This document shows positions 13,032 through 46,272 of a stretch of DNA of 64,000 nt, piece after piece. Numbering within the stretch: position 1 is the stretch's first letter; each line of letters begins with the position of its first letter. Below the pieces are notes generated by a model. It was not told where the DNA came from. It ran no database searches and was given only the letters and a program-made list of their open reading frames with translations. Position numbers and translations under genes: made by a program. This stretch comes from Squalus acanthias. Lineage: Eukaryota. The DNA lies in contig JASTWF010000034.1 in assembly GCA_030390025.1 (NCBI GenBank), positions 248,001-312,000 of the forward strand. The letters run 5' to 3'.

Positions 13032-13184
13032 GGGTTAACTGAATCTGTTTGTTCAGCGACTGTAAATAATGTCAGTCTCCACGGGTTAACTGAATCTGTT
13101 TGTTCAGTGACTGTAATTAATATCAGTCTCCACGGGTTAACTGAAATTGTTTGTTCCGTGACTGTAATTAATGTCAGCCTCCAT
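13032..13184. repeat. 3 x 51-bp tandem repeat upstream of GPCR exon 1
   Basis: gggttaactgaatctgtttgttcagtgactgtaattaatgtcagtctccac starting at 13032, 13083, 13134. Confidence 0.9.
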
Positions 13185-13352
13185 GGACCCTGATTGTATC
13201 AGTGCAGGGTTTCCCTCTTCTATTAATAAGGGATTCCTTTCAATGTGTTATCCCATTGTGTCAGTGACAGCATCACCTCCGGCACTAGCAGGCGTGCTGC
13301 TCCACCGAGCGGGAGTCGGAATCTGAGACCAGTAGATTGGAATGTTACAACA

Positions 13353-13533
13353 ATGGATTGGAATCTGAGAACAGTAGATTGGAATGCTACAACAACGGGC
13401 AGGAGTTTCAGCTCGCTGTTTAACTTTCTTTCATATTATTATGATTATCTATCATTCGACAGACGGATGGAGTTGGCACTTCAGATTATTCAACACTTTT
13501 ACTATCCCCTCGTTGCTGCTGTTGGTGTTCCTG
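13353..13533 (+). CDS. GPR139-like: GPR139/GPR142-like class-A GPCR, exon 1 (N-terminus, start of TM1)
   Basis: MDWNLRTVDWNATTT..FYYPLVAAVGVP then G|GTAAGT donor at 13534; phase 1 matches exon 2; alternative ATG at 13468. Confidence 0.85.
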
Positions 13534-13599
13534 GTAAGTCTCTATATCCAGAAATTGGATCAGTAAACCACATTTCACTGTATTACTGTTTGTCATTTA

Positions 13600-14090
13600 A
13601 ATCTTGGGAAGAGCAAAGCCATTGTCTTCGGTCCTCGTCACGAACTCCATTCTCTATCTACCGATTCAGTCCCCCTCGCTGGTCAATGTCTGAGGCTGAA
13701 CCAGGCTGTTTGCAACCTCTGCGATCTCTTTGTCCCTGAGCTGATTTCCGAAGTCATATCTTCTGAATCACCAGTCCTGCCTACTAACACCTCCAAAATT
13801 TCACCCATCTCCACTCCACCTCAGCCCTTACGCTGCATAAAACCTCATCCGTGCCTTTGTTAAATTCAGACTCGACTATTCCAATGCTCCCCTGTCCGGC
13901 CTCCCAGTTACAAGCCTCCATAAACTAGAGCTCAATCAAAACTCTGCTGCCCATATCCTAACTCGCATCATATCCCGTTCATCCATCTCCCCTGTGCTCA
14001 CTGACCAACATTTGCTCCCGATCTGGCGACAACTCTATTTTAATATTCTCATCCTTAAGTTCAAATTCCACCACGGCCTCACCCCTACAA
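13600..14090 (+). mobile_element. L2 LINE ORF2 fragment
   Basis: Decayed 'LIRAFV..RLDYSNA..QNSAAHIL..ISPVL..' L2 C-terminal region. Confidence 0.7.
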
Positions 14091-14254
14091 TTAGTTCCAA
14101 TCCCTGCTCTTTTCCCATAGTCCTGCAAATTGTTCCCCTTCAAGTGTTTAAACAATTCCTATTTTAAAGTTAATTTATTTACCTCTGTAACTCTCCCAGT
14201 CTTTCTGTCACTATTTTTATTTGTCTCTTTCTTTCTCCTTCTTTCTCTTGCTCA

Positions 14255-14600
14255 AAGAATCATAGAATTGCACAGCACAGGAGGAGAGCATTCGGCCCAT
14301 CGTGTCCATGCCGACTCTTTGAAAGAGCTATCTAAATAGCCCTGCTCTTTAGCCAGAGCCCTGTAAATCAACTAATTATCCCATTCCCTTTCGAAAATTA
14401 CTATTGAATCTGCTTCCACCACATTCTGAGTCAGTGCATTCCAGATCACAACAACTCACTGCGTAAAGATAAATTCTCCTCATCTCTCCTCTGGTTCTTT
14501 TGCCAATTACATTAAATCTGTGCCCTCTGGTTACCCACTATTCTGCCACTGGAAAGTGACTTACTCGCTCAAAACCCAGCATGATTTCCAACAATTGTAT
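14255..14600 (-). mobile_element. CR1 3' tail fragment
   Basis: agaatcatagaa..cattcggcccatcg tail hairpin on the reverse strand. Confidence 0.7.
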
Positions 14601-16830
14601 CTCCCCTTATGGAAAAGGACAAAGATAGGCCAGGTGTAAAAGTTCTGAATTGGGGAAAGGCCAATTTTACTAAGCTGAAATGTGATGTTACAAAAGTGGA
14701 TTGGAAACAGCTTCTTGAAGGGAAATCAGTGCCAGGAGGCAGTCAAAGAGGAGATAGTCAGGCTTCAGAGCAAATATGTTCCGAAAAATAATAAAGGAAG
14801 GTTTTCCCAAACCTAGAGCCCCTTGGATGTCAAGGAACATACAGGGTAGGATAACGCAACAAAGGGAAGCTTTTGAAAGATACTGAGAGCTCAACACGAC
14901 AGAAAGCCGAGAGGAGTATAGAAAGTGCAGAGGTGAATTTAAAAACAAAAGGAAATTAGAGCACAGCGAGGGCATCAAAAATATTGGCAAGTAAAATCAA
15001 GGAAAACAAAGATATTTTATAAATACATAAAGAGCAAGAGGATAACTAAGGAAAGATTGAGCCTATTAGAGATCGAAAAGGTAACCAGACAGAGTGTAGA
15101 GGCGGAAGACGTGGGTACGGATCTTAATAAATACTTTGTGTCTGTCTTCACAGCAGAGATGTAGACATTGTAGTTAAGGAGGAGGAGTGTGAAATATTAG
15201 ATGAGATAAACTTAGTGAGAGTAAACATTAAGGAGTTCAGCATCTTTGAAAGTATATAAATCTTGAGGGCTGGGTAAAATGTATCCCAGGCTTTTAAGAG
15301 AGGCAAAGGAGGAAATAGCGGAGGCTCAGACCATCCTTTTCCAATCCTCTCAGGCTGCTGACATGGTCAAGAGGACTAGAGGACTGCTAACGTTGTACCG
15401 TTGTTTAAAAAGGGAGAAAGGGATAGACCGAATAATTACAGGCCAGTCAGCCTATCTTCGGTGGTAAAAAAATAATTGGAAAATTTCTGATTGCCAATAT
15501 AAATCGACATTTTGAAAGTCACGTATTAAAAAAGGACAGACAGCATGGATTTTTTAAGGGAAGGCTGTGCATGAGTAACTTGATTGAATTTTTTGAGAAC
15601 GTAACGAGGAGGGTCGATGAGGGTTGTGAATTTGATGTAGTTCACATCGATATTAGCAAAGCCTTTAACAAGGTCCCAAATGACATGTTGGTCAAAAAAG
15701 TAAAAGCCCATGGCATCCAAGGGCAAGTGGCAAGTTGGATCCAAAATTGGCTCAGTGTCAAGAAGCAAAGGGTAGTGGTCGACTGATGTTTTTGTGACTG
15801 GAAGGCTGTTTTCAGTGGGCTTCCGCAGAGCTCATTAGTCGGAAACTTTTTGCGGTATATATCAATGATGTAGACTTCCGTCTTGAAGCCACGATTAAGA
15901 AGTTTGCAGATGATACAAAATTAGCCGTGTGGTTGATAATGAAGAAGAAAGCTTTAGGCTGCAGGAAGATATCAATGGACTGGTCTGGTGGGCAGAAAAT
16001 TGGCAAATGGAATTCAATCCGGAGAAGTGAGAGATAATGCATTTGGGGAGGGCTAACAAGGCAAGGGGCTACACAATAAATGGTAGGGGAGAATGAGAAA
16101 TGTAGAGCAACAGAGGGACATTGGAGTTCATGTCCACAGATCCCTGAAGAAATCAGGACAATTAGATAAGTTGGTTCAGAAGGCATAGAGGATACTTTGA
16201 TTTATTAGTCGAGGTATAGATAATAAGATCAGGGACGTTATGCTAGAACGGTATAAAACGCTAGTTTAACCACAGCTACAGTACTGTGTACAGTCTGGTC
16301 ATCATATTGCAGGAAAGATGTGCTTGCACTAGAGAGGGTACAGAGGAGATTTAAGATTTTGTTGCCAGGACTGGGGAACTTTAGCTATGAGGAAATATTG
16401 GATAGGCTGGGGTTCTTTTCTTTGGAACAGAGCAGGTTGAGGGGAGATTTAATTGAGGTGCACACAATTATGAAGGGCCTGGATAGAGTGGATAGGAAGG
16501 ACTTATTTCCCTTCGCAGAGAGGTCAATAACCAGGGGAATAGATTTAAAGTAATTGGTAGAAGCATTAGAGGGGTGATAAGGCGAACTTTTTCACCCAGA
16601 GGGCGGTGGGGCTCTAGAACTCACTGCCGGAATGGGTGGTAGAGACAGAAACCCTCATCACATTTAAAAAGTACTTGGATGTGCAATTGAAGTGCCGCAA
16701 CCTACAGGACTAGGGACCAAGAGCTGGAAAGTGGGATTAGGGTGGATAGCTCTTTTGCGACCAGCACAGACTCGATGGGCCGAAAGAACTCCTTCTGTGC
16801 CATAAATTTCTAGGATTGCATATTTCTATG
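14600..16830 (+). mobile_element. Decayed CR1 ORF2 and 3' tail
   Basis: Fragments NLIEFFE, DISKAFNKVP, FADDTK, ALERVQRRF; many stops. Confidence 0.9.
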
Positions 16831-16859
16831 TTTCTTAATCTTCTCTGCTCTAACAAGAA

Positions 16860-17400
16860 CATATATTACATCTACTGGTTCCCCTTTATCTACCCTGCTA
16901 GTTACACCCTCCAAAAACTCTAATAAATTTGTCAAACACGATTTCCCTTTCATAAAACCATGTTAACTCTGCCTAATCATGTAATGATTTTCTAAGTGAC
17001 TTGATGCCACTTCTTTAACAATGGATTCCAGCATTTTCCCGACGACTGATGTCAGGCTAACTGGCCTGTAGTTCCCTCTTTTCTCTCCCTCCTTTGCGAA
17101 CTTCCAATCCGCTGAGACCATTCTAGAATCTAGGGAATTTTGGAAGATCAAAACCAATGCATCCACTAACTCTTCAACCACCTCTTTTAGAACCCTAGGA
17201 TGTAGGCCGTCCGGTCCAGGGGATTTGTCGACTCTCAGTCCCATTAGTTTCTCTAGTACATTTTCTCTGCTTATAACAATTACATTTAGTTCCTCACTCT
17301 CATTAGACCCTTGGTTCCCACCATTTTTGGTATGCATTTTGTGTCTTCTACTTTATATTTCTTGCTAGTTTTCTCTCATTCTATTTTCTCCCGTTTAATT
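16860..17400 (-). mobile_element. CR1 ORF2 fragment
   Basis: DKSPGPDGLHPRVLKE, NYRPVSLTSVVGKMLE. Confidence 0.85.
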
Positions 17401-17785
17401 AATGATGGTAATTCCGAGCCACTTTTGGTGATGGACATTGACGTTTCCCCCTCCCGACTAACAGTATAATGTGTGCCCTTTCTGCTCTCGGTGCTCCCAT
17501 CAACTGGTGTTCATCATTAAGATGTGCCGATTCATCAGCTGAGGGAGGGCGATATTTGGTAATCGGCAGGAGGTTACCTTGCCCATGTCTGACTGGATGT
17601 CATGAGACTTCATTATATCCTTAGGCAAAGTTGAGGATTCGCAGGTTCTCACCCACGAGTCTGTATACCCCTGTGCCCCCACCTCTGGTTGGCCTGTGCT
17701 GCCAGTGGAACAGGACACAGCCTGGGATGGTGAAGGAGGATTCGAGAATGTTGACTGATAGTTATGATTCTGTGAGTATTACTGT
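17400..17785 (-). mobile_element. Decayed LINE endonuclease fragment
   Basis: Reverse-strand similarity to APE domain (GNVNVHHQKWLG-like). Confidence 0.45.
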
Positions 17786-18019
17786 GCGAGAATTCAATGT
17801 TTCCAGAGCGTTTCATGGAGTATTGGGTGCTTACAGGGTATTTATCTCATTGGTTAATATTTTTAAGGTTTTCCTTTGATTCCTTGATATCAAACCTTTG
17901 TTCCTTTTAATTTTACTTTACCTCGGTCAAACACCATGACATGTTTGTCTGGGCAAGATCACTCTTTCTAAATATGTTGTTCTTATTCTTGTTCTAGTTT
18001 CAGGCAATAGAGAAATGAA

Positions 18020-18375
18020 CTGGGGATGAAATTCCTGGACTGAGGCGGGAGCCGTGTAATCTAGGAGGCCCTGGGAATGAAATTCCTGGACTGAGGCAGG
18101 AGCAGTGTAATCTAGGCGGCCCTGGGAGTGAAATTCCTGGACTGAGGCGGGAGCCGTGTAATCTAGGAGGCTCTGGGAGTGAAATTCCTGGATTGAGGTG
18201 GGAGCAGTGTATTCTAGGTGTCCCTGGGTGTGAAATACCTGGATTTAGTTGGGAACAGTGTAATCTAGGCAGCCCTGGGAATGAAATTCCTGGATTGAGC
18301 TGAGAGCAATGTGAACTAGGCAGCCCTGGGAATGAAATTCCTGGATTGAGGCGGGAGCAATGTCATGTAGGCGAG
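18020..18375. repeat. 51-bp minisatellite, ~7 copies
   Basis: ccctgggaatgaaattcctggactgaggcgggagcagtgtaatctaggcgg in tandem. Confidence 0.92.
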
Positions 18376-18589
18376 TCCCATCATTCCATCACTGGGATAA
18401 TCTCTCAGATCCTGCCGTTTATGACCATTTGTTTAATGTTTTTTTTTTATTCTGATGGACTGGTATGGAATAAATCAGAGAACAACTGTGCAGAAACCCA
18501 TTTTTTCAGTGATCTGCACAGAGTGATCCTAAATGGAGTGGTTAGAAACAGAGTGCTAAGGTTGTGAATTTAGAGAGCGAAGCAATTAG

Positions 18590-19665
18590 GGGCAGAGGGA
18601 GAAGGAGGAGAGTGCGAGATGAGCGGCCGGAGATAAAGGTAGGCCAGAGAACCCGGAGCGGGGAGGAGAGCAAGGTGCGAGTTAAGTGACGTCAGCACAA
18701 GGGAATGCCCTGAAAAGAAAATAAATGGTTAGTAGATTTTGATTAATTTAAGTCCTGAGTTTAATTCTGTTAAGTTAGTTAATAGTCTATTAAAAAGAGA
18801 CATGGCAGGGCACATCAGACCCGTGGAATGCACATCTTGTGCCATGTTGGAACTCCAGGACACTTCCCACGGGTTTCGGAGCTTGAGCAGCAGCTGGCGT
18901 CACTGCGGTGCATCCGTCAGGCTGAGAGCTCCGTGGATAGCACGTTTCAGGAGGTGGTCACCTCGCAGTTTAAGAGAGCGCAGGCAGAGAGGGAATGAAT
19001 GGCCGTCAGACAGACAATGAGGACCAGGCAAGTAATGCAGGAGTCCCCTGAATGCATTTCACTCTCTAACCGGTACGCATTTGCACCTCTGGGGAGAACA
19101 GCCAGAGACAAGTCCACGGAAACACGGGTGGCTCAGCTGTAGCGGGGGGACGTGGGGGGGGGGGGGCGGGGCGGGGGGAGGAGGAAGATTGGGAAAGCAA
19201 TAGTGGTAGGGGATTAGATAGTGAGGGAACAGACTGGCTTTTCTCCAGCCGCAGACGTGACTCCAGGATGGTATGTTGCCTCCCTGGTAGCAGGGTCAAG
19301 TATGTCACTGAGTGGCTGCAGGACATTCTGAGGGGGCAGGGTGAACAGCCAGAGGTCGTGGTCCATATTGGTATCATCCACAGAGGTAGAAAGAGGGATG
19401 TGGTCCTGCAGGCAGACTATAGGGAATTGGGAGCGAGATTAAAAAGCAGGACCTCGAAGATTGTAATCTCTGGATTACTCCCGGTGCCACGAGCTAGTCA
19501 GTATAGAAATAGAACGATAGAGCAGATGGATGCTTAGCTGGAGAGACGGTGCAGAAGGGAATGCTTTAGATTCCTGGGACATTGGGACCGGTTCTGGGGA
19601 AGCTGTGACCTGTACAGGTCGGCGAGGTTGCATATCAACAGAGCGGGAACCAATGTTCTCGCAAT
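18590..19665 (+). mobile_element. CR1 5' UTR and ORF1 fragment (CxxC + esterase)
   Basis: MAGHIRPVECTSCAMLE; MVCCLPGSRVK..VVVHIG..SGLLPVPRAS. Confidence 0.8.
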
Positions 19666-19696
19666 TGGTGGGAGAGGTGGGGGCGTTGCTGGTATA

Positions 19697-20840
19697 ATAG
19701 AATCATAGAAAATAGGAGCAGGAGTAGGCCATTCGGCCCCTCTTGCCTGCTCCACCATTCAATGCGATCATGGCTGATCATCCAAATTCAGTACCCTGTC
19801 CCTGCTTTCTCCCCATATCCCTTGATCCCTTTGTCCTTAAGAAATATATCCAACTCCTTCTTGAATCTATTTAATGAATTGGCCTCTACTGCCTTCTGTG
19901 GCAGAGAATTCCACAGGTTCACCACTCTCTGGGTGAAGAAATTCCTCCTCATTTCTGTCCTAAATGGCTTACCCCTTATCCTTAGACGTTGACCCCTGGT
20001 TCTCGACACCCCGACCATCGGGAACATCCTTCCTGCATCTAGCTTGTCCTGTCCTGTCAGAATTTTATAAGTTTCAATGAGATCCCCTCTCATTCTTCTA
20101 AACTCCAGCGAGTATAAACCCAATCGACCCAATCTCTCTTCATACGTCATTCCTGCCATCCCAGGTATCAGCCTTGAGAATCTTCGCAGAACTCCTTCCA
20201 TGGCAAGAACATCCTTCCTCAGATAAGGCGACCAAAACTGCACACAGTACTCAAAGTGTGGTCTCACCAAGGCCCTGTACAACTGCAGCAGGACATCCTT
20301 GTTACTGTACTCAATCCCCCTCGCTATGAAGGCCAACATACCATTTGCCTTCTTAACAGCCTGCTGCACCTGCATGCTTACCTTCAGCGACAGGTGCACA
20401 AGGACACCCAGGTCTCGTTGCACTTCCCCTTTTCCCAATCTATTGCCATTCAGATAATAATCTGCCTTTCTGTTTTTGACACCAAAGTGGATAACCTCGC
20501 ATTTATCCACGTTATATTGCATCTGCCACGTTCCTGCCCAATCACCCAACCTGTCCAAATCATCCTGGAGTTTCTCGGCATCCTCCTCGCAGCACACACG
20601 CCCACCCAGTTTTGTGTCGTCTGCAAACTTGGAGATATTAAATCTAGTTCCCTTGTCTAGATCATTCATATATATTGTGAACAGCTGGGGTCCAAGGACC
20701 AATCCCTGCGGTACAACACTAGTCACTGCCTGCCACTCGGAAAAAAGACCCGTTTATTCCAACGCTTTGCTTTCTGTCTGCCAACCAGTTCTCTATCGAA
20801 GTCAATACCTTGCCCCCAATCCCATGTGCCTTAACTTTAC
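19697..20840 (-). mobile_element. CR1 3' copy (same subfamily as B)
   Basis: ORF 19788..20726 RT C-terminal half is open, followed by tail. Confidence 0.93.
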
Positions 20841-22955
20841 ATGCTAGAGTCCATTATAAAAGATGTAATAGCAGAGCACTTGGAAAACAGTGACAGGATC
20901 GGTCAACGTCATCATGGATTTACAAAAGGTAAATCATGCCTGACTAATCTACTGAAATTTTTTGAGGATGTAACTGGTAGAATAGATAAGGGAGAACCAG
21001 TGGATGTGGTGTATTTGGACTTTCAGAAGGCTTTCGATAAGGTCCCGCATAAGAGATTAGCGTGCAAAGTTAAAGCACATGGAATTGGGGGCAAGGTACT
21101 GATTTGGATAGAGAACTGGTTGGAAGACAGGAAGCAAAGAGTTGAAATAAACGGGTCTTTTTCCGAGTGGCAGGCAGAGACTAGTGGGGTACCGCAGGGA
21201 TCGGTGCTAGGACCCCAGCTATTAACAATATATATTACTGATCTAGACGAGGGAAATAGATATAATGGGCCGAAAATTGATCCCGGGACGCGAGAGTACG
21301 CACTGCGTACTCTCGCGTATTCCCACTCCAATTGCCGGTTTTCTGCATGCCCTACGCATGCGCTGAAAACCGGCAATTGCTCTTCTGAAAAGGGGGCGGG
21401 GCCTGGGTGCATCGCGTGCGCGCTACAGGCTGCGCGCACGCTGTGCACTTCATGCTTTGGACGCGCAGGTAAGTAGGGAAGATTTTGGACATGTAAAAAG
21501 GAGGAGTAAGACCCGCTTTTAAGAAGGTAAGTAGTGAATTAAGTATTTTTTTGAATTTTTTTTTACAGGTATATCTTTTTTATAGACTTTAAAGACAGGT
21601 AAGTTTATTTTTATAACTTTTTAAAAGATTTTAAATTTTTTCAAAAATTTAATTTTTTATTTAAAATGGTTAATTTAATTAACTATACTTATTTTATTAA
21701 TGTGATGGTTTTTTTTAATTTAATTGAGGTTTAGCTGTTATTTTGGGGGGGTGTAAGATTCATAAGTCTCACAGCCATGCTGTGAGACTTATGAATGGAA
21801 GATGGTGTGCTGCCATTGGCTCTAACTGAGTCACGTGATCCCACAGCTCGCACGAATTCACTGCGCCGCTGGGATACGCAAGCCCAGCACAGCTGATGTC
21901 TGGAACATCAAGTTCGTGCGAGCTGGATCAGAAAAAGCATAAGCGAGGTGAGACATCACGGGGAAGGCTTACCCCCGCGGGAACAGAGCGAGATCAATTT
22001 CTGGGCCAATATCTCTAAGTTTGCAGACGACACAAAGCTGGGTGGAGGGGTGTGCTGTGAGGAGGATGCAGAGAAACTCCAGTATGATTTGGAAAGGTTG
22101 GGTGATTGGGCAGATGCATGGCAGATGCAGTATAATGTGGATAAATGCGAGGTTATCCACTTTGGTGGCAAAAACAGGAAGACAGATTATTATCTGAACG
22201 GCAATAGATTGGGAAAAGGGGAAGTGCAACGAGAGCTTTGAGTCCTTGTGCACCAGATGCTGAAGGGAAGCATGCAGGTGCAGCAGGCGGTTAAGAAGGC
22301 AAATGCTATTTTGGCCTTCATAGCGAGAGGATTCGAGTACAGGAGCAAGGATGTCTTGCTGCAGTTGCACAAGGCCTTGGTGAGACCACACCTCGAGTAT
22401 TCTTTGCAGTTTTGGTCGCCTTATCTGAGGAAGGATGTTCTTGCCATGGAGGGAGTGCAGCGAAGATTTACCAGACTGATACCTGGGATTGAAGGAATGA
22501 CGTATGAAGAGAGATTGGGTCGATTAGGCTTATATTCACTAGAGTTTAGAAGAATGAGAAGGGATCTCATTGAAACTTATAAAATTCTAACAGGACTTGA
22601 CAGACTAGATGCAGGAAGGATGTTCCCGATGGCGGGGGAGTCCAGAACCAGGGGTCACAGTCTAAGGATGAGGTCAAGCCATTTAGGACAGAGATGAGGA
22701 GGCATTTATTCACCCAGAGAGTGGTGAACCTTTGGAATTCTCTACCACAGAAGGCAGTTGAGGCCAATTCATTCAATATATTCAAGAAGGAGATAGATAT
22801 ATTTCTTAAGGCTAAAGGGGTCAAGGGATATGGGGAGAAAGCAGGGACAGGGTACTGAATTTGGATGATCAGCCATGATCTCATTCAATGGCGGAGCAGG
22901 CTCGAGGGGCCGAATGGCCTAATCCTGCTCCTATCTTCTATGCTATGCTTCTATG
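20841..22955 (+). mobile_element. CR1 3' copy (same subfamily), interrupted by MITE copy 2
   Basis: ORFs 20841, 21948 and 22248 are RT segments; tail near 22900-22955. Confidence 0.93.
21267..22007 (+). mobile_element. MITE copy 2
   Basis: TIRs gggccgaaaattgatcccg / cgagatcaatttctgggcc; AAT TSD (21264-21266, 22008-22010); removing it restores the host RT. Confidence 0.93.
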
Positions 22956-22991
22956 CTTCTTCATCCCAGAAGCCATCTTCTCAGTAAGGGG

Positions 22992-24166
22992 TTAGAATCG
23001 GTGTCTTATGAGCCATTCACGGACGGTCCTTTCAGTGGCAACAGTGTGCACCTCCCTCCCACGTTGGTGCTGCTGATCCTCCTCTTCATCATCCTTATCC
23101 TCCTCCTCTCCCTCTTCCTCCTCCTCCTCCTCCTTTGGTGGTGCACCAATCCCTGGTGGCAATGGCTGGGTCCTCATGATTGCAATGTTAGGAAGCATGC
23201 AGCACACAAAAATGAAGAGGGAGACTCGCTCGGGAGAGTACTGCAGGGCTCCCCCTTAGTGGTCCAGACACCGGAACCGTTGTTTCAAGACACCCGTCGT
23301 CTGCTCAATGAGGTTCCTGGTGGCGCTATGGCTCTCATTGTATTGGAGCTCAGCAGGAGTGTTGGGGTTACAGAGCGGTGTCATCAGCCAGGTGCAGAGT
23401 GGATAACTTTTGTCGCCGAGGAGCCATCCATAGGTTGATGCGGTGTTGGAAGATGTTGACGACACCGGTCTGGCGCAGGATAAAAGTATCGTGGCAGCTG
23501 CCAGATTATCGGGCAGTGACGGCGAGTATGAGCTGTCTGTGATCACAGACATACGTCACATTCAGAGAGTGGAAGCCCTTGTGGTTTCGGAACACCTCTG
23601 CATTCTCACGAGTTGCCCGCAATGCTACATGCGTGTAGTCAATGGTGCCCTGAACTATGGGGAAGCCCGCTATCCTCGCAAAACCACATGTGCGTTCACC
23701 CTGTTTGTCCCAGGTCATGGGGAGAGATGTACTGGCGTCTCCTCTTCTACGAAGCATTTGTCACCTCCCGGATGCAACAATGAACAGGGAAACAGGAGCT
23801 ATTCACTGTGTCCCCAGTAGAAGCCTGAAAGGAACCGCTGACTGAGAAATTCAGTGCCACTGTCAGCTTCACTGCCACCGACAGAGATGTCCTGGTCCTG
23901 AGCTGAGGCTGCAGATCTGGTTGCAGGTGGCGGCAGAGCTCAGTGACCACCTCCTTTCTGAAGCCCAGCCATTGGAAACACTACTCCTCAGACAAATGGA
24001 TATAGGAAGAGAATTGGTTCCTGAATACTCTGGGAGGGTAAGGTCTCCTGTGCAGAGGCCTGATGGCCCTCCTCCTTCTGGCCACGTTTGCCACTCTCAC
24101 TCTGCGCCTCTGCTGCCTCTGAAGGTGAAGCTGGACGACCAGGCCCCGAGTTAGTGCAGCCCCCAT
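22992..24166 (-). pseudogene. HARBI1-like: PIF/Harbinger DDE transposase (HARBI1-like), frameshifted
   Basis: [81 protein letters not shown] across five ORF pieces. Confidence 0.93.
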
Positions 24167-24591
24167 CGAAGCTTCTAAATATCGTCAGAAGGAAGGTGAC
24201 ATAAAAATGAATCAACAAAGTGGTGCTCAGGACCCAAATCTCGTTCGGTCAGCTTTGAATCTCTCCAGACGTCTCTTTCCCTCTTTACATGCGTGTACCA
24301 AAAATTGTGCCGACAAGAAAAGGCAGGAAGCGGCCGCCTTTAATTAGTGCTCCCCCAGCCCCTCCCGTATGAAAACGTTCCCCTCTACCTGTCGTTCCTA
24401 GTGGCAGGCACTAAGGCAGGGGACGCGACTCAATATCCGGCCCGGGGCGCTACCGGGGCGTTGCACGCTCGACTGACGTCATGATCTGCAGGCGCAGGAG
24501 ATCGTGGTGGTAGTGTTTATTGCCAGCGCAAAACAACTAGTCAATTTCCCGAGCGGCGCTAAATTAGCCGCGCTCGGGCACTAAAAATCTA

Positions 24592-25479
24592 GGGGGAGAA
24601 ATTCAGTATCGCCCCATTTGGGGCTCAATTATCGGCCAGGTGCATAAATTAGCGCCTGGCGCTAATTATCGCCTCTGATTGCAAACTTGGCTTTTATCGC
24701 CCCTAGAATTGATTGGAGCGCTAAATCAGGCTTTTCACAGCTGTCTTAAGGTGCAAAGGCCACGGAGCGAGGCGTTACCTCAGAGCACTGGCGAAGCTCA
24801 TTAGATGTCAGTTAGGAATGGAACACAGATACAATGGCGCCGGCCAGTTCTTAAAGGGGATGGTTGATCTTGCTCTCCATCCACATCCTGCTCATTGCAG
24901 CCTTGAATCTCGGCCTGGAGAGACCTGTACATCAAATCTGCTGGAAAGAACAACGGAGAGGCCCAGGGAAAGAGCTCAGAGTGCAGTCCCCACAGTTTCT
25001 TCTAAATCGATACAAGGAAGGGCAAATGAAAATGAACCTGCAAAGTGCTGCTCAGTACCCAAAACTCCTTCACACAGCGTTGAATCTCTCCAGAAGTCTC
25101 TCTCTCTCTCAGAATTCGTGGTGCAAAAATGTCACCAACAAAAATGCAGGAAGCGTTCGCCTTTAAATCGCGCTCGCCCAGTCCCTTCCTGACTGCAAAA
25201 CGCTCCCCTCAACCTATCGTTGCTAGCAGCAGGCGGTAAGGCAGGAGGCGCCACACAATATCTCGTCCGGGGCGCTACTGGGCCGTTGCGCACGCGACTT
25301 ATGTCACTATCTGCTGGCGCATGAGTTTGTGGCGGTACTGTTTAGCGCCGCCGCAGAATGTCTAGTTAATTTCGTGAGCGGCACAAACATCGCCAGCGTA
25401 TGGGCGCTAGATGCTTTGTTCCGCATTGGTGCCCTCTTAAGGCACTAAGTGGAGGCGCTACCCAACCGACTTTCCCCCC
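24592..25479. mobile_element. Non-autonomous Harbinger-related element
   Basis: Ends gggggagaaatt.. / ..actttcccccc; 25148-25410 is a diverged copy of the Harbinger subterminal region 24325-24585. Confidence 0.7.
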
Positions 25480-25706
25480 ACATGTTTAACTGTGTTTCCC
25501 ACTTTGTCGTTCCCCATCCCATCCGCGCTGCTGTCAGCTATTGATTGTGAACATGATATCGTGTTACCAAGATTCAAATATTCTATATTCAACTCAGGCA
25601 AATTTTTATTGAAGGTGACTCTTTATTTAACGAATTTCAGTCTGCTACCTACACTGAACATTGGTAACAGATCAGAAGAATGCTGTCTTGGTTGAGGAGA
25701 CATTCA

Positions 25707-25850
25707 CCTCTGGCGAAAGATCATCGACCTGAAACGTTAACTCTGTTTCTCTCTCTCTCTCCACAGATGCTGCCTGACCCGTTGAGGATTTCCACCATTT
25801 TGTGTTTTCATTTCAGATTTCCAAAATCCGGAGAATTTTGTGTTTGTTTT
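25707..25850 (+). mobile_element. Penelope terminal-repeat fragment (degenerate hammerhead)
   Basis: ctggcgaaagatcatcgacctgaaacgttaactctg..gatgctgcctgacc.. Confidence 0.8.
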
Positions 25851-27146
25851 CACCTAATGCTCGGTATGGTTACTTACACCGACTCACAGGAACAAATCCT
25901 GGCAGATCACATCCACATCTTTAAATGACTGAAATATCCGCTAATCATTCAGTTCCAGTCAGTGTCTCCTTTCCACCCTCTCCAGTTCTGCATTAGTGGC
26001 ACTGCTTCTGATGGTTTAAGTAGGATTACAAGGACAATTTACATTCTCACAAAATGTTCATTCAGACAGATTTCAATATATTTATTTCTAATCAATGTTT
26101 TAAATTTGTAATTGGATCCCATGGCCGTCTGTCACAGTACGGTGCATCTGTCAGTGAGACCCAGAGTGATTCTCTATTGCCTCCTGCTGTACTTCAGGAT
26201 AAACAATCCCAGCCGATTGTAACTGAAGTACTGAGGATAAGAAAATCCTTTGATATCTTCTCCTCTAATATTCTCTGCACAAGTTGGAAACAACAGCTGA
26301 AAAAGTACAAGGATAAATCTCTTCCATTTGTGTTCAGATACTTTACAACAGCCACCGGTGGCACTGTGCCTGTGGGATAAATCATCTGATTTCGATGCTG
26401 ATAAATGCATTTAGTGGTACATTACCTGGTCAACCATCACTAATTCAGAGTCCATTATTTGCAATGTTACTGGGCAAATCTTCCGTTCAATGAGCTAGAA
26501 TTTGTGTATTTCAAAAAAAATGCAGAAAACTCAATCTTCAAAATATATCTGATAGCCCAGTTATCTTTATAACTGCAGTGCACTTGTATTTATTATCTCA
26601 GCATTGTCATATTACATCCGTACATTTTACATACAATTGCCTGTAATTATTACATGCCAAGGTTGCAGTTTCTGTATTTTGCTGTTGCACTCATTTTCAG
26701 TTCTAAATAGAATGGATATTGTAACCAGGAGCAGGAATCCAAGCGGGATTTCCCGCTCACTAACACAGAAGCGAAATGTACCGCTCCAAATGCTGACTGA
26801 CCCCGGGACATGAAGGCTTCCTGAGAGGGTCTGGTCCTTTGTGTCCCTGGTACCTCGGGCGGTGCTTTTGTCTGCTGGGCTAAATATAGATCGATCATTT
26901 AATCTCTCCTTGATCAAACATCTGTTACTTTCATATTGTATTTATTCCCATTTCATTTATTGATTCCACAATATATTCCCGATTATTCTTACAATAAACC
27001 CTGTATTCAGCTCCACAGGCAATAGGATTAGATTATATCATTGAATGTCGCTCGTGAGTTGCAGATTTCAACCTGAATACCATCAAACTGCTGCCTTTGC
27101 TCACAGCCTGATGTATAATTTCCCTGTTTATTTCCCTTCCTCACAG

Positions 27147-28048
27147 TGAACTTAATGACGATTGTGATACTGTCTCGGGGAAAGTGCGGACTCTCCAAAT
27201 GTGTCACTCGCTACCTGGTGGCCATGGCATCGGCGGATCTACTGGTCGTTATCCTCGACCTGATATTGAGGCACATTCCGATTCTTTATAGTGAACAGTT
27301 TCATTTCCTGCGGGGCATCCGCGTGTGTAATATCCACGCCGTCCTGCTGTTCGCAGCCACAGACTGTTCTGTCTGGTTCACCGTCACTTTCACCTTTGAT
27401 CGATTTGTAGCCATTTGTTGCCAGAAGCTGAAAACTAAATATTGCACCGAGAAAACGGCGGCTGTGGTTCTGGGAACAGTGACTGTGCTGAGCGGTTTAA
27501 AGAACATCACCTGGTATTTTATGTTCACAGATCGGTATACGCTTGCGAACCTCCCCTGGTTTTGTTATGTCACAATGGATGTTGTATATTCACTGGTCTG
27601 GGGACCAATCGAGTTCCTTCATTATATTCTCACCCCGTGTGTCCCATTTGTGGTAATTCTGCTGCTCAATGGTGTCACCGTCAGACACATTTTAGTGGCC
27701 AACAGAGCCCGCAGGAGACTCCGGGGTCCCAGCAGTGGGGAGAGTGCCAGAGACCCAGAAATGGAGAGCCGCAGGAAATCCATAATTTTACTGCTTGTTA
27801 TCTCCGGCAATTTCATCCTGTTATGGGCCGTGTTTATGGTGTATTCTATAAGCAGCCGGATGTGGAATTTGGCGAATGAGTCTGGAAAACTACCTTATTA
27901 TGTAATGGAAGTGGGATTCATGCTGCAGCTGCTGAGTTGCTGCACAAACACTGGGATATACGCCGTAACCCAGACGAAGTTCAGAGAGCAGTTGAAGAAT
28001 GTGGGGAAATATCCCTTTACTCTGATTGTAAAATACATTAAAAGATGA
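27147..28048 (+). CDS. GPR139-like: GPR139/GPR142-like class-A GPCR, exon 2 (TM1 end to stop)
   Basis: Polypyrimidine + CACAG acceptor at 27146; YLVAMASADLL (TM2), FTFDRFVAIC (TM3), TPCVPF (TM5), CTNTGIY (TM7); open to TGA at 28046-28048. Confidence 0.95.
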
Positions 28049-28210
28049 GAAAAAGCAGAGACTTTGCAGCCTGAGAGTTCCCTGGGTCTGATATTGTGGC
28101 GAGCCGCTCTCCACAGTGCCGGGCCGGCGGGGCCAGTGTTCTGGGACATTCACACGTTCACTCACACACTGTCTACACTGGGCTCACTGGGCCTGATATT
28201 GTGGCGCCCA

Positions 28211-28340
28211 GCACAAAGATGGCGGCTCTGGTGCGCCGCACAAAGATGGCGGCTCTGGCGCCCTGCACAAAGATGGCGGCTCTGGGGGCCCGGCACAAAG
28301 ATGGCGCCTCTGGGGATCCGCACAAAGATGGTAGCCCTCA
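28211..28340 (+). promoter_or_regulatory. 27-bp tandem array (x5) of YY1-like motifs in a CpG-rich segment
   Basis: gcacaAAGATGGCGGC at 28211, 28238, 28265; variants at 28293, 28320. Confidence 0.55.
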
Positions 28341-28649
28341 TCGGGGCCTTTCCCTGGCGGCGGGAGGCGAGCATCCGGAGGGCGGCAGCAGTTGGACTCC
28401 CATTTACCGTTAGAGCGGGCGACGAGGCGGAGCAGCCTGGCCTGGCCCGTCCCACAGGAGCAGGAGCAGCCCCGCCCGGGGAGGAGGAGGCCCGGAACCA
28501 GGACTCTATAAATCATTGTAATACTTTATAATACTTTAAAATCATTACACCACTTTCCAAATCTTTATATCCCTTTATAAATCATTATGACCATAAATAA
28601 GACATTATGATGCATTTTAAATCATTATGACACATAATAAATCATTTTT

Positions 28650-28902
28650 ATAATTCATTATTGGGATGTGGGCATCGCTGACAAGGCCAGCATTTATTGC
28701 CCATCCCTAATTGCCCTGGAGAGGGTGGTGGTGAGCCGCCTGAGACAAGCGAGTGTCTTGCTGGGCCATTTCAGAGGCCAGTTAAGAATCAATAACATTG
28801 CAATGGGTCTGGAGTCACATATTAGCTAAGGACGGCAGATTTCCTTCCCTAAAGGCCATTAGTGAACCAGATGGGTTTTTACGACAATCCGGTACTTTCA
28901 TA
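28650..28902 (-). mobile_element. SINE 3' half
   Basis: Reverse complement of ~63500-63760. Confidence 0.85.
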
Positions 28903-33890: not shown

Positions 33891-35069
33891 CTATATAATA
33901 GTCACTTGCAATGCAATAGCACATTACAATGGAATATCGCTGCATTATAATAGTGCTTTAAAGTGGAATTTGCCTTTGCAATGGAATCTGACTTTGCAGT
34001 ATAATATTGATTTGCAATGCAATAGCACATTGCAATGGAATATCACTTTGCAATATAATAGTCATTTGCAATGCAATAGCACTTTGCAATGGAATATAGC
34101 TTTGCAATATAATCGTCATTTGCAATGCAATAGAACATTGCAATGGAATATCACTTTGAAATATAATAGTCATTTGAAATGCAATAGCACATTGGAATGG
34201 AATATCACTTTGCAATATAATCGCCATTTGCAATGCAAAAGCACATTGCAATATAATTTCGCTTTGCAATATAATAGTCATTTGCAATGCAATAGTACAT
34301 TGCCATGGAATATCACTTTGCAATATTATAGTCATTTGAAATACAATAGCATTTTGCAATGTAATATCACTTTGCAATATAATAGTCATGTCAATGCAAT
34401 AGCACATTATAATGGAATATCGCTTTTCAATATAATATTCATTTGCAATGCAATAACATATTGCAATGGAATGTAACTATGCAATATTAGTGTCATTTGC
34501 AATGCAAAAGCACATCGCAATGGAAAATCAAATTGCAATATAATCAGAATTTGCAATGCAATTGAACATTTCAATGCAATATCACTTTGCAATATACTAG
34601 TAATTTGTAATGCAATAGAACATGGCAATGGAATATCACTTTGCAAAATAATAGTCATATGCAACGCCATAGCACATTGCAATGGAATATCACTTTGCAA
34701 TATAATAGTCATGTGCAATGCAATAGCAGATTGCAATGGACAATCAATTTGCTATATAATAGTCATTTGCAATACAATATCACATTGCAATAGAATATCA
34801 CTTTGCCATAGAATAGTCATTTTTAATGCAATAGAAAATTGCAATGGAATATCACTTTGCTACATAATAGTCATTTGCAATGCAATAGCCCATTGCAATA
34901 GGATATCACTTTGCAATGTAATAGTCATTTGCAATGCAATAGCAAATTGCAATGGAATATCACTTTACAATATAATAGTCATTTGCAATGCAATAGCATA
35001 TTGCAAATGTAGTATCGCTGTGCAGTATAATCGTCATTTGCAATTCAATAGCACATTGCAATGGAATAC
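33890..35069. repeat. 54-bp satellite built from three 18-bp subunits; resumes at 36640-36685
   Basis: tttgcaatgcaatagcac-attgcaatggaatatcac-tttgcaatataatagtca, about 22 units. Confidence 0.95.
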
Positions 35070-43099: not shown

Positions 43100-43170
43100 G
43101 GGAGCGAGAGAGCGAGCGAGGAACAGGGAGAGAGAGAGAGGAACCAGGAGAGAGAGAGAGATAAACCGCG

Positions 43171-43202
<32 letters not shown>

Positions 43203-46000
43203 TGGGAAAGAGAGATAGAGAGAAACCGGGAGAGAGAGAGACAGAGAGAACAGAAACCAGGAGAGTGAGAGAGAGAGAGAGAAACCAAGAGAGAGAGAGA
43301 GAAAGGAACAGGGAGAGAGAGACACACACAGAGAGAGAAACCATGAGAGAGAGAGAGAGAGAAACCGGGCGAGAGAGAGAAAGGATCAGGGAGAGAGAGA
43401 GACACACACACACACAGAAACCATGAGAGAGAGAGAGAGAGAAACCAGGCAAGAGAGAGAAAGGAACAAGGAGAGAGAGACACACACAGAGAGAGAAACC
43501 ATGGGAGGGAGAGAGAGAGAGAGAGAGACCAGCAGAGAGAGAGAGAGGCAGAGAGAGAAATCAGAAGAGAGAGAGAGAGAAACCAGAAGAGGGAGAGAGA
43601 GAGAGAGAACCTGGGAGAGAGAGGGTGATAGAAACCAGGAGACAGAGAGAGAAAGGAAAAGGGAGAGAGAGACACACACGGAGAGAGAAACCAAGAGAGG
43701 GAGAGAAACCGGGCGAGAGAGCGAGAGAAAGGAACAGGGAGAGAGAGACACACACAGAGAGAGAAACCAGGAGAGAGAGAGAGAGAAAGGAACAGGGAGA
43801 GAGAGAGAGACACAGATAAACAGAGAGAGAAACTGGGAGAGAGAGAGAGACAGACAGAGAGAGAAACTGGGAGAGAGGGAGAGATACAGAGAGTGAAACT
43901 GGGAGAGAGAGAACAACCGGGAGAAAGAGAGAGAGAGAGAGAGAAACTGGGAGAGAGAGAGACAGAGGGCGAGAGAAAAGCCGGGAGAGAGAGAGAGAAA
44001 CTGGGAGAGAGAGAGAAATTGGGAGAGAGAGAGAGAGGAATTTGGAGAGAGAGAGAGGGACAAAGGGAATAGTGAGAGAAACTGGGAGAGAGAGAGAGAA
44101 ACAAGGAGAGAGAGAGAGAGAAACTGGGAGAGAGAGAAACTGGGAGAGAGAGAGAAACTGGGAGAGAGAAACTGGGAGAGAGAGGGAGACAGAGAGAGAA
44201 AGGGTGGGAGTGAGAGAGTGAAACTGGGAGAGAGAGAGAGCGAAACCTAGAGAGAGAAAGAGAGAGAGAGAGATAAAAGGAGAGAGAGACAGAGAGAGAA
44301 ACTGCGAGAGAGAGAGAGAAACCGGGAGAGAGAGAGAGACAGAGAGAGAAACTGGGAGACAGAGAGATAAACTGGGAGACAGAGAAAAACTGGAAGAGAG
44401 AGAGAGAAACTGGGAGAGAGTGACAGAGAGAGAAAGAGAAAGAAATTGGGAGAGAGAGAGAGAAAAACTGGGATAGAGAGAGAGAGAGAGAGAAACCTGG
44501 AGAGAGAGAGAGAGAGAAACAGAGAGAAATAGAAACCAGTAGAAAGAGAGAGACACATAAGAGAAACCAGAAGAGAGTGAGTGAGAGAGAGACAAGGAGA
44601 GAGAGAGAAAAAGGAACAGGGAGAGAGAGACACAGAGAGAGAGAAAAAAATCAGGAGAGAGAGAGAGAGTGAGAAACCGAGAGAGAGAGAGAGAACTTGA
44701 GAGTGAGAGAGATAAACTGGGAGAGAGAGAGAGTCCGAGAGAGAAACTGGGAGAGAGAGACAGACAGAGAGAGAAACTGGGAGAGAGAGAGATAAAAACC
44801 GGGAGAAAGAGAGAGAGAGAGAGAAACTGAGAGAGAGAGAGAGAGAGACAGAGGGAGAGAGAGAAGCTGGGAGAGAGAGAGAAAAACTGGGAGAAAGAGA
44901 GAGAAATTGGTCGAGAGAGAGAAATTGGGAGAGAGAGAGACAGAGGGTAGAGAGAGAAACTAGGAGAGAGAGAGACAGACAGACAGAGAGAGAAACTGGG
45001 AGAGAGAGCGAGAGAGAGACAGAGAGTGAAACTGGGAGAGAGAGAACCGGGGAGAAAGAGAGAGAGAGAGAGAAACTGGGAGAGAGAGAGAGAGACAGAG
45101 GGAGAGAGAAAAGCTGGGAGAGAGAGAAATTGGGAGAGAGAGGGAGAAATTGGGAGAGAGAGAGACAGAGGGAAGAGAGAGAAACTGGGAGAGAGAGAGA
45201 GAGATAAACCGAAAGAGAGAGAGATAAAAGGAGAGAGAGGGAGACAGAGAGAGAAACTGGGAGAGAGAGAGAGAGAGACCGGGAGAGAGAGATAAACTGG
45301 GAGAGAAAGAGAGAGAAACCGGGAGAGAGAGAGACAGACAGAGAGAGACACTGGGAGAGAGAGAAAAACTGGGGGAGAGAGACAGAGAAAGACAGAGAAA
45401 GAAACTGGGGTGGAGAGATAGAGAAACATAACCCGGAGAGAGAGAGAGAGACAGAGAGAAAGAGAAACCGGGAGAAAGAGCTAGACATAGCGAGAGAAAC
45501 CAGAAGAGAGTGAGAGAGAGAGAAACAAGGAGAGAGAAAGAAAGTAACAGGGAGAGAGAGAGACAGAGAAAGAGAGAGAAATCAGGAGAGAGAGAGAGAG
45601 AGAAACCGAGAGAGAGAGAAAGAGAGAGAGACCTTGTGAGAGAGAGAGAGAGTATCCAGGAGAGAGAGAGATAAACCAGGAGAGAGAGAGAGAGATCGAG
45701 AGAGAAACTGGGAGAGAGAGAGAGACAGACAGAGGGAGAGAGAGAAGCTGGGAAAGAGAGTGAAAAACTGGGAGAGAGAGAGAGAGAAATTGGGAGAGAG
45801 AGAGAGAGACAGAGAGAAACTGAGAGAGAGAGAGAAACTGGGAGAGAGAGAAACTGGGAGAGAGATAAACTGGGAGAGAGAGGGAGAAACTGGGAGAGAT
45901 AGAGAGAGAAAGGGAGAGAGAGAGATAAAAAAGAGAGAGAGAGACAGAGAGAGAAACTGGGAGAGAGAGAGAGAGAAACTGGGAGAGAGATAGAGAGAGA
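43100..46000. repeat. ~2.9-kb GA-rich complex microsatellite (polypurine on + strand)
   Basis: (GA)n punctuated by aaactggg / aaaccagg. Confidence 0.97.
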
Positions 46001-46272
46001 GGGGTTGACTGGGTTAAACACACAGGGAGAGGCACAGGCTCTGGGGGTCTCCAATGTTTAGTCACTGCCCCGCTCCCAGCGTCTGCAGAAAAGCCCCTCT
46101 GTCACATCCTTCCAGAATGTCAAGATTCAAAAATCAATCCCAGGACGGCGATTTTAATAAGTGTCCCAAAGGAATCAGCAGCTTAATCCCTTTTAAAAGA
46201 GGGGTTCGCACTTTCTGGGGAGTGCGGGGATGTTCCCAGCCTTGGAATACACGCCGCCGTGGCCATTTTAAT

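Follow-up and report, generated by a model that had tools for sequence, protein, structure and literature searches.

The receptor gene in the window (the whole 64-kb stretch of DNA analysed) belongs to a multigene family that spans sharks, skates and rays, and Callorhinchus. Databases label the family 'probable GPR139'. This is a mislabel: the sequences form a chondrichthyan-wide multigene family, separate from GPR139 and diversified in its pocket. We hold membership of the family and diversification of the pocket, as a joint claim, with high confidence.

The receptor gene and its surroundings

Features of the locus are given in Table 1. The two coding exons make up a CDS of 1083 nt that encodes 360 aa, with zero internal stops: a class A GPCR. 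Exon 1 opens with an ATG and ends, in phase 1, at a GT donor; a pyrimidine tract and AG precede exon 2. Pfam 7tm_1 scores 74.4 bits (cut-off 30.5) and is the sole match above cut-off; up to E 1 the only other hit is a chance match to FANCA. The earlier note had described a spliced 360-aa seven-transmembrane reading frame surviving in DNA saturated with transposable elements, and this description holds.

Table 1. Coordinates of the receptor gene and of neighbouring features within the window.
Feature	Position	Strand	Content or basis
51-bp × 3 tandem array	13032..13183	+	just upstream of the TATA-like box; TRF, 92% matches
TATA-like element	13221..13229	+	132 bp before the ATG; putative promoter, from sequence
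Decayed copy of the 42-nt N-terminal repeat	13311..13352	+	in frame, without ATG
Coding exon 1	13353..13533	+	residues 1-60 plus one base (CDS reading, paralog alignment, run X1 junction); one 14-aa repeat unit with N-glycosylation sequon (N11), variable N-terminal segment, outer half of TM1
Intron	13534..27146	+	13.6 kb, phase 1, GT-AG
51-bp × 6.9 array	18020-18373		inside intron
Harbinger-like DDE piece (DDE_Tnp_4)	23259-23555	minus	inside intron
Coding exon 2	27147..28048	+	remainder of TM1 to helix 8 and stop; predicted disulfide between C121 and C200; ECL2 hairpin, DRF, ICL3 DPEMxxRRKS motif, W287, N328, Y332
Probable 3′ UTR	28049..28690	+	right end estimated from a 686-nt X1 contig, first 186 letters aligned

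Two lines of evidence support the assignment of exon 1. The N-termini of paralogs align with it, and a contig of run X1 (a probable RNA run) has a loose end before position 27146 whose 30 letters equal 13503-13532 exactly, a string that occurs once within the window; the exact exon junction is thus present in that run. An X1 contig also matches 28005-28190 with 0 differences. Runs X1 and X2 additionally contain contigs across the end of the intron, which means that DNA or pre-mRNA is present. An intronless retrocopy could produce the same junction as the X1 contig. Only 26 to 75 contigs match the gene in each of three probable RNA runs, and no run containing the gene is registered as RNA. Four samples from a single study contain the gene, a pattern compatible with broad expression provided that they are different tissues. 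A pseudogene reading was rejected, the gene being intact and spliced.

Within the upstream array, units begin at 13059, 13110 and 13161; two of the three carry TAATTAAT and one a variant, and period 51 scores 0.71 where period 26 scores only 0.36. The 42-nt N-terminal repeat occurs in 1 to 5 copies in paralogs. The intron holds LINE fragments, including a LINE endonuclease/RT-type ORF region, and LINE RT ORFs flank the gene. A hexamer scan found a sequence resembling a poly(A) signal at 28636. The window contains one copy of the receptor gene; no other gene was recognised in its 64 kb, and neither Rfam families nor tRNAs were found there.

The motifs noted earlier are all present: DRF (145-147), LLWAV (285-289), NTGIY (328-332) and a very short tail, of 28 residues after Y7.53. 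So are N1.50, D2.50, C3.25 with the ECL2 cysteine, R3.50, P5.50, F6.44, W6.48, N7.49 and Y7.53, and each of these core class A residues is retained by 115 to 120 of the 120 close paralogs; a broken activation switch was rejected on this ground. P6.50 and P7.50, absent here, occur in 0/120 close paralogs, while DRF is found in 118/120. Human GPR139 likewise lacks the proline at 7.50 and a cysteine before W6.48, and the NPxxY proline is missing from both single-copy sister lineages described below; just two features, the DRF and the missing P6.50, set the gene apart from both GPR139 and the amphibian gene. The 'altered motifs' are therefore family traits rather than peculiarities of this gene. 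The 'altered activation motifs' of the earlier note, read as a sign of unusual activation, find no support: the missing NPxxY proline is common to human GPR139 and both sister lineages, and the core switch residues are intact. Neither the Pfam search up to E 1 nor residue 3.32 (Leu, with no aminergic Asp) places the protein among the OR, V1R, V2R, T2R or TAAR families.

An AlphaFold model of the exon-2 part, without exon 1, has a mean pLDDT of 88.3 and a pTM of 0.85 and superposes on NTSR1, helix 8 included (Z 25.8, rmsd 2.7 over 264 residues), a match with many ties; a full-length paralog folded poorly (pLDDT 52.5). Structure searches (Foldseek, VIA) returned generic peptide-receptor matches, with GPR139 absent among the 50 best listed, which is uninformative about its relationship to this receptor.

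Extent of the family and its relation to GPR139

A database search returned 2,534 of 4,235 candidate clusters passing E 1e-5. The best 120 listed of these 2,534 matches all come from four shark species; among them are at least 47 Heterodontus, at least 36 Heptranchias and at least 22 Pristiophorus sequences with mutual core identity below 95%, numbers that are lower bounds from database protein listings and not a genome count. Clustering at 50% gave 119 representatives with E ≤ 1e-30. Species names were sought for 22 family representatives: the clusters of 19 carry one, all 19 chondrichthyan (including Callorhinchus and four batoids), and 3 showed no species. In the genome-sized run X19, 1,632 contigs fall on a 1.5-kb stretch, a figure that is not a copy number. 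The lineage-expanded family predicted in the earlier note is thus real; the expansion is larger and older than that note could know. Where it had taken a single-copy or unexpressed gene as evidence against its proposal, we found many paralogs and a spliced junction in a probable RNA run.

No description of the family was found in the literature on GPR139/GPR210 receptors of cartilaginous fishes, a search that covered mostly open-access papers. A term search found no mention of GPR139 in PMC11979771, PMC8455134, PMC10620051, PMC7677710, PMC10869828 or two preprints. The catshark expression supplement, or the tandem-cluster supplements of preprint 10.1101/2025.06.08.657570, could list the family.

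By sequence, the closest relative of solved structure is GPR139 (human; PDB 7vug, 9m42)/GPR142. Human GPR139 is the best solved-structure match both in a single-sequence search (E 3.8e-10; next 4.2e-05) and with a profile of 72 sequences (E 8.4e-29; next NTSR1, 3.7e-20). Both receptors have N at 5.58 and lack a proline at 7.50; within the GPR139 Trp/Phe site, F3x33, H5x43 and W6x48 are matched here (residue roles from the available text of PMC5430874 and PMC12775434); three of the four residues needed for Trp/Phe activation (F109, H187, W241; PMC5430874, in part) are therefore in place. These likenesses favour the view that the gene is the shark ortholog of GPR139 or GPR142, an aromatic-amino-acid receptor of brain or gut. 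We nonetheless judge this extremely improbable. The match to GPR139 is weaker than that of two other, non-orthologous lineages (2.6e-13, 1.8e-18), although GPR139 is described as highly conserved (PMC12208981, in part). Mapped by hand from HMMER alignments, with numbering from the available text of PMC12775434 and PMC5430874, only 3/9 of the agonist-site residues D84, E105, E108, F109, W166, H187, W241, R244 and N271 are matched (F129, H219, W287); where GPR139 has D84, E105, E108, R244 and N271, this receptor has R, A, L, F and F. The TM3 position of GPR139 that aligns to C3.25 is Asp, whereas this receptor has C3.25 and the ECL2 cysteine. Further differences are the loss of P6.50, the greater length of ECL2 and ICL3, a glycosylated repeat at the N-terminus and the copy number: among the 120 listed sequences, three sharks each have at least 22 to 47 distinct close paralogs. 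The earlier judgement that the gene is not the GPR139 ortholog is borne out by the weak E value, the agonist site and the copy number. On these comparisons the family is a separate lineage inside the wider GPR139/GPR142 group; GPR139 has itself been placed in a group with FMRFamide receptors (PMC12208981, in part).

Two single-copy lineages help to locate it. Lineage A, also labelled probable GPR139, is a gene of amphibians and sturgeon, each listed species (20 amphibians, 1 sturgeon) having a single cluster. Two mixture-model trees place it as sister to the family (92/99; quick tree SH-aLRT 92), and alternatives to a clade of family plus lineage A give p-AU values of 0.041 and 0.043 under the mixture model; an LG+G4 tree does not separate the relationships of the family, lineage A and lineage B. 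True GPR139 and GPR142 did not appear among the proteins returned by the homolog and representative searches, and all trees were built from sets without them. The ICL3 motif D-P-E-x-x-x-R occurs in 17/20 lineage A sequences, in 115/120 close and 43/51 diverse family members, and in 0/120 of lineage B. Lineage A shares R at 2.61 and 6.59 with this receptor but has an invariant basic pocket, keeps DRY and HWLP, and is only ∼31% identical. Most likely, to judge from trees and motif, the family is co-orthologous to the single-copy lineage A gene.

Lineage B ranges from sharks to turtles and squamates; sharks have their own lineage B gene, distinct from the expanded family. Lineage B may be one of GPR210A/GPR210B, non-human GPR139/142 relatives reported from coelacanth and fishes in a paper whose main text contains no shark (0 occurrences) and describes no expansion (Rinne et al. 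2019, PMC6504862); no match emerged between its Ensembl ids and the sequences compared here. Expansions of FMRFamide-receptor-like and srw genes in Lymnaea and nematodes are likewise large, lineage-specific and derived from peptide-receptor-like class A GPCRs (PMC11589774, PMC3963977, both in part): Lymnaea has ∼450 FMRFamide-receptor-like genes, for which the authors favour a reproductive role (PMC11589774, in part), and nematode srw chemoreceptors derive from peptide receptors (PMC3963977, in part). In contrast, the present family arose by its own expansion within vertebrates, and in our trees the invertebrate-like sequences group outside the vertebrate lineages. Among the Atlas look-alike clusters, Srw/Srx/Srsx families are assigned to a minority of members.

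Variation across the receptor

Column identity, a protein-level measure and not dN/dS, with statistics that ignore tree structure, was compared between regions of the receptor. Across 51 diverse members it is 0.28 for pocket-facing positions, 0.51 for other TM positions (p 4e-6) and 0.76 for the G-protein face. Among the 20 amphibian orthologs of the single-copy gene the corresponding values are 0.97, 0.80 and 0.94. In the close subfamily the pocket does not exceed the remaining TM columns in variability (0.73 vs 0.79 for other TM, p 0.33); variation sits at the rim and loops, ECL/ICL identity being 0.49/0.80 in 120 close paralogs, 0.82/0.69 in amphibians and 0.52/0.48 in lineage B. Most of this variation falls on the exposed N-terminus and the loops, with alternate positions of the ECL2 hairpin among the variable ones, and the N-terminal repeat, with its glycosylation sequon, varies in copy number among paralogs. 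The subfamily pocket is polar and of mixed charge (R102, H124, K179, H219, R298; D98, D133, E216, E315) and sits on a conserved aromatic floor (F129, W287). As far as protein sequence can tell, a variable pocket above a conserved G-protein face is the signature of a repertoire that recognises many ligands and gives a single output.

Candidate functions

The best reading, to which we give about an even chance, is that the family would be a chemosensory repertoire for water-borne ligands. Its members resemble OR, TAAR, V1R/ORA, V2R/OlfC and T2R receptors in having many paralogs (counted here as lower bounds), a compact coding region and a variable pocket over a conserved signalling face, this last seen in the 51 diverse members; the likeness is one of genomic behaviour, the family being no member of these by sequence, and a sensory role is our proposal. 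With switch residues and G-protein face kept and with pocket and extracellular loops diversified, each member would bind a different ligand and all would signal via one shared G protein. GPR139 couples to Gq or Gi/o, and by analogy either might serve here. A polar mixed-charge pocket over an aromatic floor would suit amino-acid-like or short-peptide-like ligands, with the variable rim setting specificity. The family could thus act as a combinatorial sensor of many foreign water-soluble molecules, most probably in nasal, oral or cutaneous chemosensory cells. The 'possibly chemosensory' role of the earlier note is supported, though indirectly, by the hypervariability of pocket and loops. Counting against it, a catshark brain-plus-olfactory library shows no GPCR among the 50 most specific genes in the available text of PMC11979771, and V2Rs are reported to be dominant in the nose (PMC10116579, in part). 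The low contig numbers in the probable RNA runs count against it too, as would broad expression across the four samples. The close-subfamily variation at rim and loops also speaks against it, resembling that of receptors chased by pathogens.

That last pattern leads to the main rival, immune sensing: receptors on leukocytes or barrier epithelia that would detect microbial, parasite or damage-derived peptides, much as formyl-peptide or Mas-related receptors do, with loops diversifying in an arms race. The exposed N-terminus and loops on which close paralogs vary (alternate ECL2 hairpin residues among them), the glycosylated repeat of varying copy number and the presence of the gene in four samples of one study all agree with this. 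Family-wide, however, it is the deep pocket that is most variable, as expected for discrimination of small ligands, and the closest solved relative by sequence is GPR139 rather than a chemoattractant receptor; we consider immune sensing unlikely, if a serious contender. An internal or reproductive role, with receptors of the testis, sperm, oviducal gland or brain that respond to gamete cues or to the animal's own peptides, is improbable. The pockets of the single-copy relatives are invariant, so the ancestor probably had one fixed ligand, and the Lymnaea expansion has been linked to reproduction (PMC11589774, in part); yet it is difficult to assign endogenous ligands to pocket variants that number from dozens to hundreds per genome, and we know of no ligand family that would match them. 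Genomic drift, by which a cassette prone to duplication in repeat-rich DNA would multiply with no selection for new ligands and leave most copies redundant or decaying, seems to us quite improbable. The surroundings are indeed saturated with repeats, and many database models of the family are truncated or have mis-joined first exons. The variation is nevertheless structured: pocket and loops are free to change and the G-protein face is conserved, opposite to what the single-copy gene shows. Members come from chimaera, rays and sharks alike, and the copy in the window is intact and spliced.

A bolder form of the chemosensory reading can be offered only tentatively, at distinctly less than even confidence: cartilaginous fishes may have independently evolved a so far unrecognised chemoreceptor family of hundreds to more than 1,000 genes per genome, from one GPR139-related ancestor kept single in amphibians, and it may be their main olfactory or skin repertoire. 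These fishes are reported to have the smallest olfactory receptor repertoire of the vertebrate groups, with a mean of 43.8 genes and a range of 20 to 62 (PMC10869828, in part), and a 'relative paucity' of GPCRs (PMC8455134, in part). The small repertoire contrasts with their large olfactory organs, and sensitivity over discrimination has been proposed as the resolution (PMC10116579, in part). Those surveys covered known receptor families only.

Against this background, at least 47 distinct members come from one horn shark within the closest 120 of the 2,534 database matches. The 'probable GPR139' label was also seen to hide two conserved orphan receptors of non-mammalian vertebrates. If immune, the family would be a large germline recognition repertoire. 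If sensory, it would be a new vertebrate chemoreceptor family and would reopen the question of the shark olfactory repertoire; and if it is the main olfactory or skin repertoire, the view that sharks smell with ∼44 receptors would be overturned.

Structure and splicing of the gene

Joined, the two exons (see table) encode 360 residues with no internal stop (translation), and both coordinates and open frame agree with the spliced seven-transmembrane reading frame proposed in an earlier note. Exon 2 matches Pfam 7tm_1 with 74.4 bits (cut-off 30.5); its predicted fold (mean pLDDT 88.3) is a helical bundle in which ECL2 forms a hairpin and helix 8 occupies nearly all of the C-terminal tail, and in a structure search peptide receptors superpose on this model with Z about 25. 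The distant exon 1 is correct, because the N-termini of paralogs align to it and because one contig from X1, a sequencing run presumed to be RNA, departs from the window at the acceptor, the next 30 of 30 letters shown being the end of exon 1. Further X1 contigs match exon 2 and its 3′ flanking sequence with 0 to 2 differences. Since the RNA status of X1 is guessed, its tissue is unlabelled and its contigs also cover the intron end, the run demonstrates a spliced form of the gene and nothing on the site or level of its production.

Features of the receptor locus and repeats in the window
Feature	Position	Strand	Remarks
51-bp × 3 array and TATA-like box	13032–13229		array directly 5′ of box; TAATTAAT cores
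N-terminal repeat region	13311–13394	+	one decayed copy ahead of ATG
Exon 1	ATG at 13353, 181 nt	+	GT donor at end; from sequence
Intron	between exons 1 and 2, 13.6 kb	+	from sequence
Harbinger-like DDE_Tnp_4 fragment	23259–23555	−	sits in receptor intron
Exon 2	27147 to stop at 28048, 902 nt	+	from sequence
Two 27- to 28-bp arrays	28202–28331, 52370–52632		related-looking units, opposite orientation; first shortly after stop codon
54-bp × 21.8 tandem array	33893–35068		long stop-free frames, both strands; tested frame without Pfam match
Degenerate (GA)n repeat, about 2.9 kb	43102–46001		extreme strand skew

The 64-kb window holds one copy of the gene, with LINE and DDE remnants around it and within its intron. 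As background to the 51-bp array, homeodomain sites close to odorant-receptor promoters are known to increase gene choice. The subfamily of the gene carries an N-terminal repeat of 14 residues (42 nt): among the best 120 of 2,534 database matches, 58 models contain at least one core and 29 contain two to five. Paralogs differ in copy number, with as many as five cores, and because each unit begins with Met and encloses an N-x-T glycosylation sequon, they may differ in start site and in number of glycans too.

A large and old chondrichthyan family

With exon 2 as query and clusters at 90% identity, 2,534 of 4,235 candidates pass E ≤ 1e-5; the 2,414 beyond the best 120 may contain non-family receptors. 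The best 120, every one named ‘probable G-protein coupled receptor 139’, come from Heterodontus (52), Heptranchias (42), Pristiophorus (25) and Scyliorhinus (1). Collapsing them at 95% core identity leaves 47 distinct sequences of Heterodontus, 36 of Heptranchias and 22 of Pristiophorus, on scaffolds of 36 different lengths in the first genus and 14 in the second; the lineage expansion that the earlier note had suspected is borne out. Top identity to the gene among these 120 is 80%, so its source organism is absent from them.

An unfiltered search returned 119 representatives of 50% clusters at E ≤ 1e-30, full-length members reaching down to about 40% identity. Species were checked for 22: three carry no species name, and all 19 named are chondrichthyan (sharks, four batoids and Callorhinchus), which makes the family older than the chimaera–shark split. 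It is both large and old. In X19, a genome-sized run from another organism, 1,632 contigs match the 1.5-kb stretch compared at 85% or above, which is not a copy number. Their depths add up to as much as 36,000, versus 4 to 36 for most single long contigs listed; the tally hints at hundreds or more genes.

Relationship to GPR139 and its relatives

Among receptors of solved structure, human GPR139 comes closest by sequence (profile E 8.4e-29; runner-up 3.7e-20). That the gene is its ortholog is nonetheless highly improbable, as the earlier note held: in single-sequence comparison it matches human GPR139 at 3.8e-10, more weakly than two unnamed vertebrate lineages (2.6e-13 and 1.8e-18). Lineage A (P0244, P0276–P0295), a conserved orphan GPCR labelled GPR139 yet distinct, has one cluster per species in 20 amphibians and a sturgeon (25 hits of 1,675 candidates), shark family members being the next matches. 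Lineage B (P0241, P0254, P0308–P0425) is a conserved orphan with 145 hits; the 120 listed come from three sharks (one cluster each), fishes, amphibians, turtles and squamates, and no bird or mammal is among their named rows. It may be GPR210A or GPR210B, two non-human receptors of fishes that Rinne et al. (PMC6504862) relate to GPR139/142. Two of its models are titled ‘transmembrane protein 183A isoform’, names that hint that the gene adjoins or overlaps a TMEM183A-labelled locus.

In trees built without GPR139 and GPR142, a mixture model unites the family with lineage A (92/99, 24 rows; p-AU 0.041 and 0.043 for the two alternatives), as does a quick 80-row tree (SH-aLRT 92); an LG+G4 tree of 39 rows does not resolve the grouping. 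An ICL3 motif occurs in 115 of the best 120 of 2,534, 43/51 diverse members and 17/20 of lineage A, and in none of the 120 listed of 145 in lineage B. In the same trees P0269, a protein probably from an invertebrate chordate, branches amid or beside the vertebrate lineages, a placement suggesting that these receptors are older than vertebrates.

The altered activation motifs emphasized in the earlier note are present, but they are not peculiar to the gene, and reading them as a mark of unusual activation finds no support. As judged by alignment, DRF, absence of P6.50 and P7.50 and a short tail are family traits: among the best 120 of 2,534, DRF occurs in 118, proline at 6.50 or 7.50 in none, and a median of 27 tail residues follow Y7.53 (28 in the gene). 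The NPxxY proline is also missing from lineage A (0/20) and lineage B (0/120 listed of 145), and since human GPR139 is likewise without it (N-F-F-L-Y in TM7, L-W-A-P in TM6), its loss is old in the GPR139-related group. Departures from GPR139 and the amphibian gene are the lost P6.50 and the F replacing Y after DR. There is no sign of a dead switch, because D2.50, R3.50, P5.50, F6.44, W6.48, N7.49 and Y7.53 are retained in 119 or 120 of the same 120.

Binding pocket and putative recognition role

Generic positions were assigned from motifs; the 27 pocket-facing and 22 G-protein-facing positions are those we take to be such from general class A knowledge. With columns treated as independent and the tree ignored, mean column identity, which is not dN/dS, across 51 diverse members (near-full-length only, fragments excluded) amounts to 0.28 for pocket columns, 0.51 for the remaining TM columns and 0.76 for those of the G-protein face (p 4e-6 and 7e-7). 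Corresponding values are 0.97, 0.80 and 0.94 in 20 amphibian orthologs and 0.74, 0.65 and 0.82 in lineage B; the 120 close paralogs (best of 2,534) show no excess pocket variability (0.73 vs 0.79 in other TM, p 0.33). Their extracellular loops are more variable than the intracellular (0.49 vs 0.80), the reverse of the amphibian loops (0.82 and 0.69), and along the ECL2 hairpin fixed and variable residues alternate. Pocket and loops are diversified and the signalling side is conserved.

Mapped by hand from alignments (numbering of PMC12775434 and PMC5430874), the gene shares F109, H187 and W241 with GPR139 but differs at D84, E105, E108, R244 and N271 (R, A, L, F and F). The Trp/Phe pharmacology of GPR139 should not be transferred to it, and an aromatic or amino-acid-like ligand group is plausible. 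Lineage B has S or C in place of W6.48 and retains GPR139-like E2.61, D3.29 and R6.51. The lineage A pocket is invariant and basic (R2.61, K6.51, K6.55, R6.59), which suggests an anionic ligand; no other lineage offers as good a starting point for tracing the ligand ancestral to the shark family.

The family probably couples many ligands to one G-protein output and would then constitute a recognition repertoire. Whether this repertoire is directed at external chemicals is, in our estimate, evenly balanced, and this reading ranks above each of its rivals. For it count the pocket variation across the 51 diverse members and reported expansions from related peptide-receptor-like groups in nematodes (PMC3963977) and in a snail (PMC11589774), where the authors favour reproduction; internal or reproductive signals are an improbable reading here, and immune sensing, though unlikely, is a better candidate than these. 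Against external chemosensation count the presence of the gene in four samples of one study, the mere 26 to 75 matching contigs in each of three probable RNA runs, the reported dominance of V2Rs in the shark nose (PMC10116579) and the lack of any GPCR among the 50 most specific catshark brain-plus-nose genes (PMC11979771), which lack V2Rs too. Genomic drift we regard as slightly less probable still than internal signalling.

No description of the family was found in the literature covered, shark-genome and chemoreceptor papers included; subscription papers and catshark and preprint supplements, outside that scope, might mention it. It is recorded as automatic annotation, and expanded class A repertoires as such are already known. 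What makes the family stand out is the reported mean of 43.8 olfactory receptor genes in cartilaginous fishes (PMC10869828), together with their reportedly few GPCRs (PMC8455134); its function is putative, and the finding is one that would surprise specialists.
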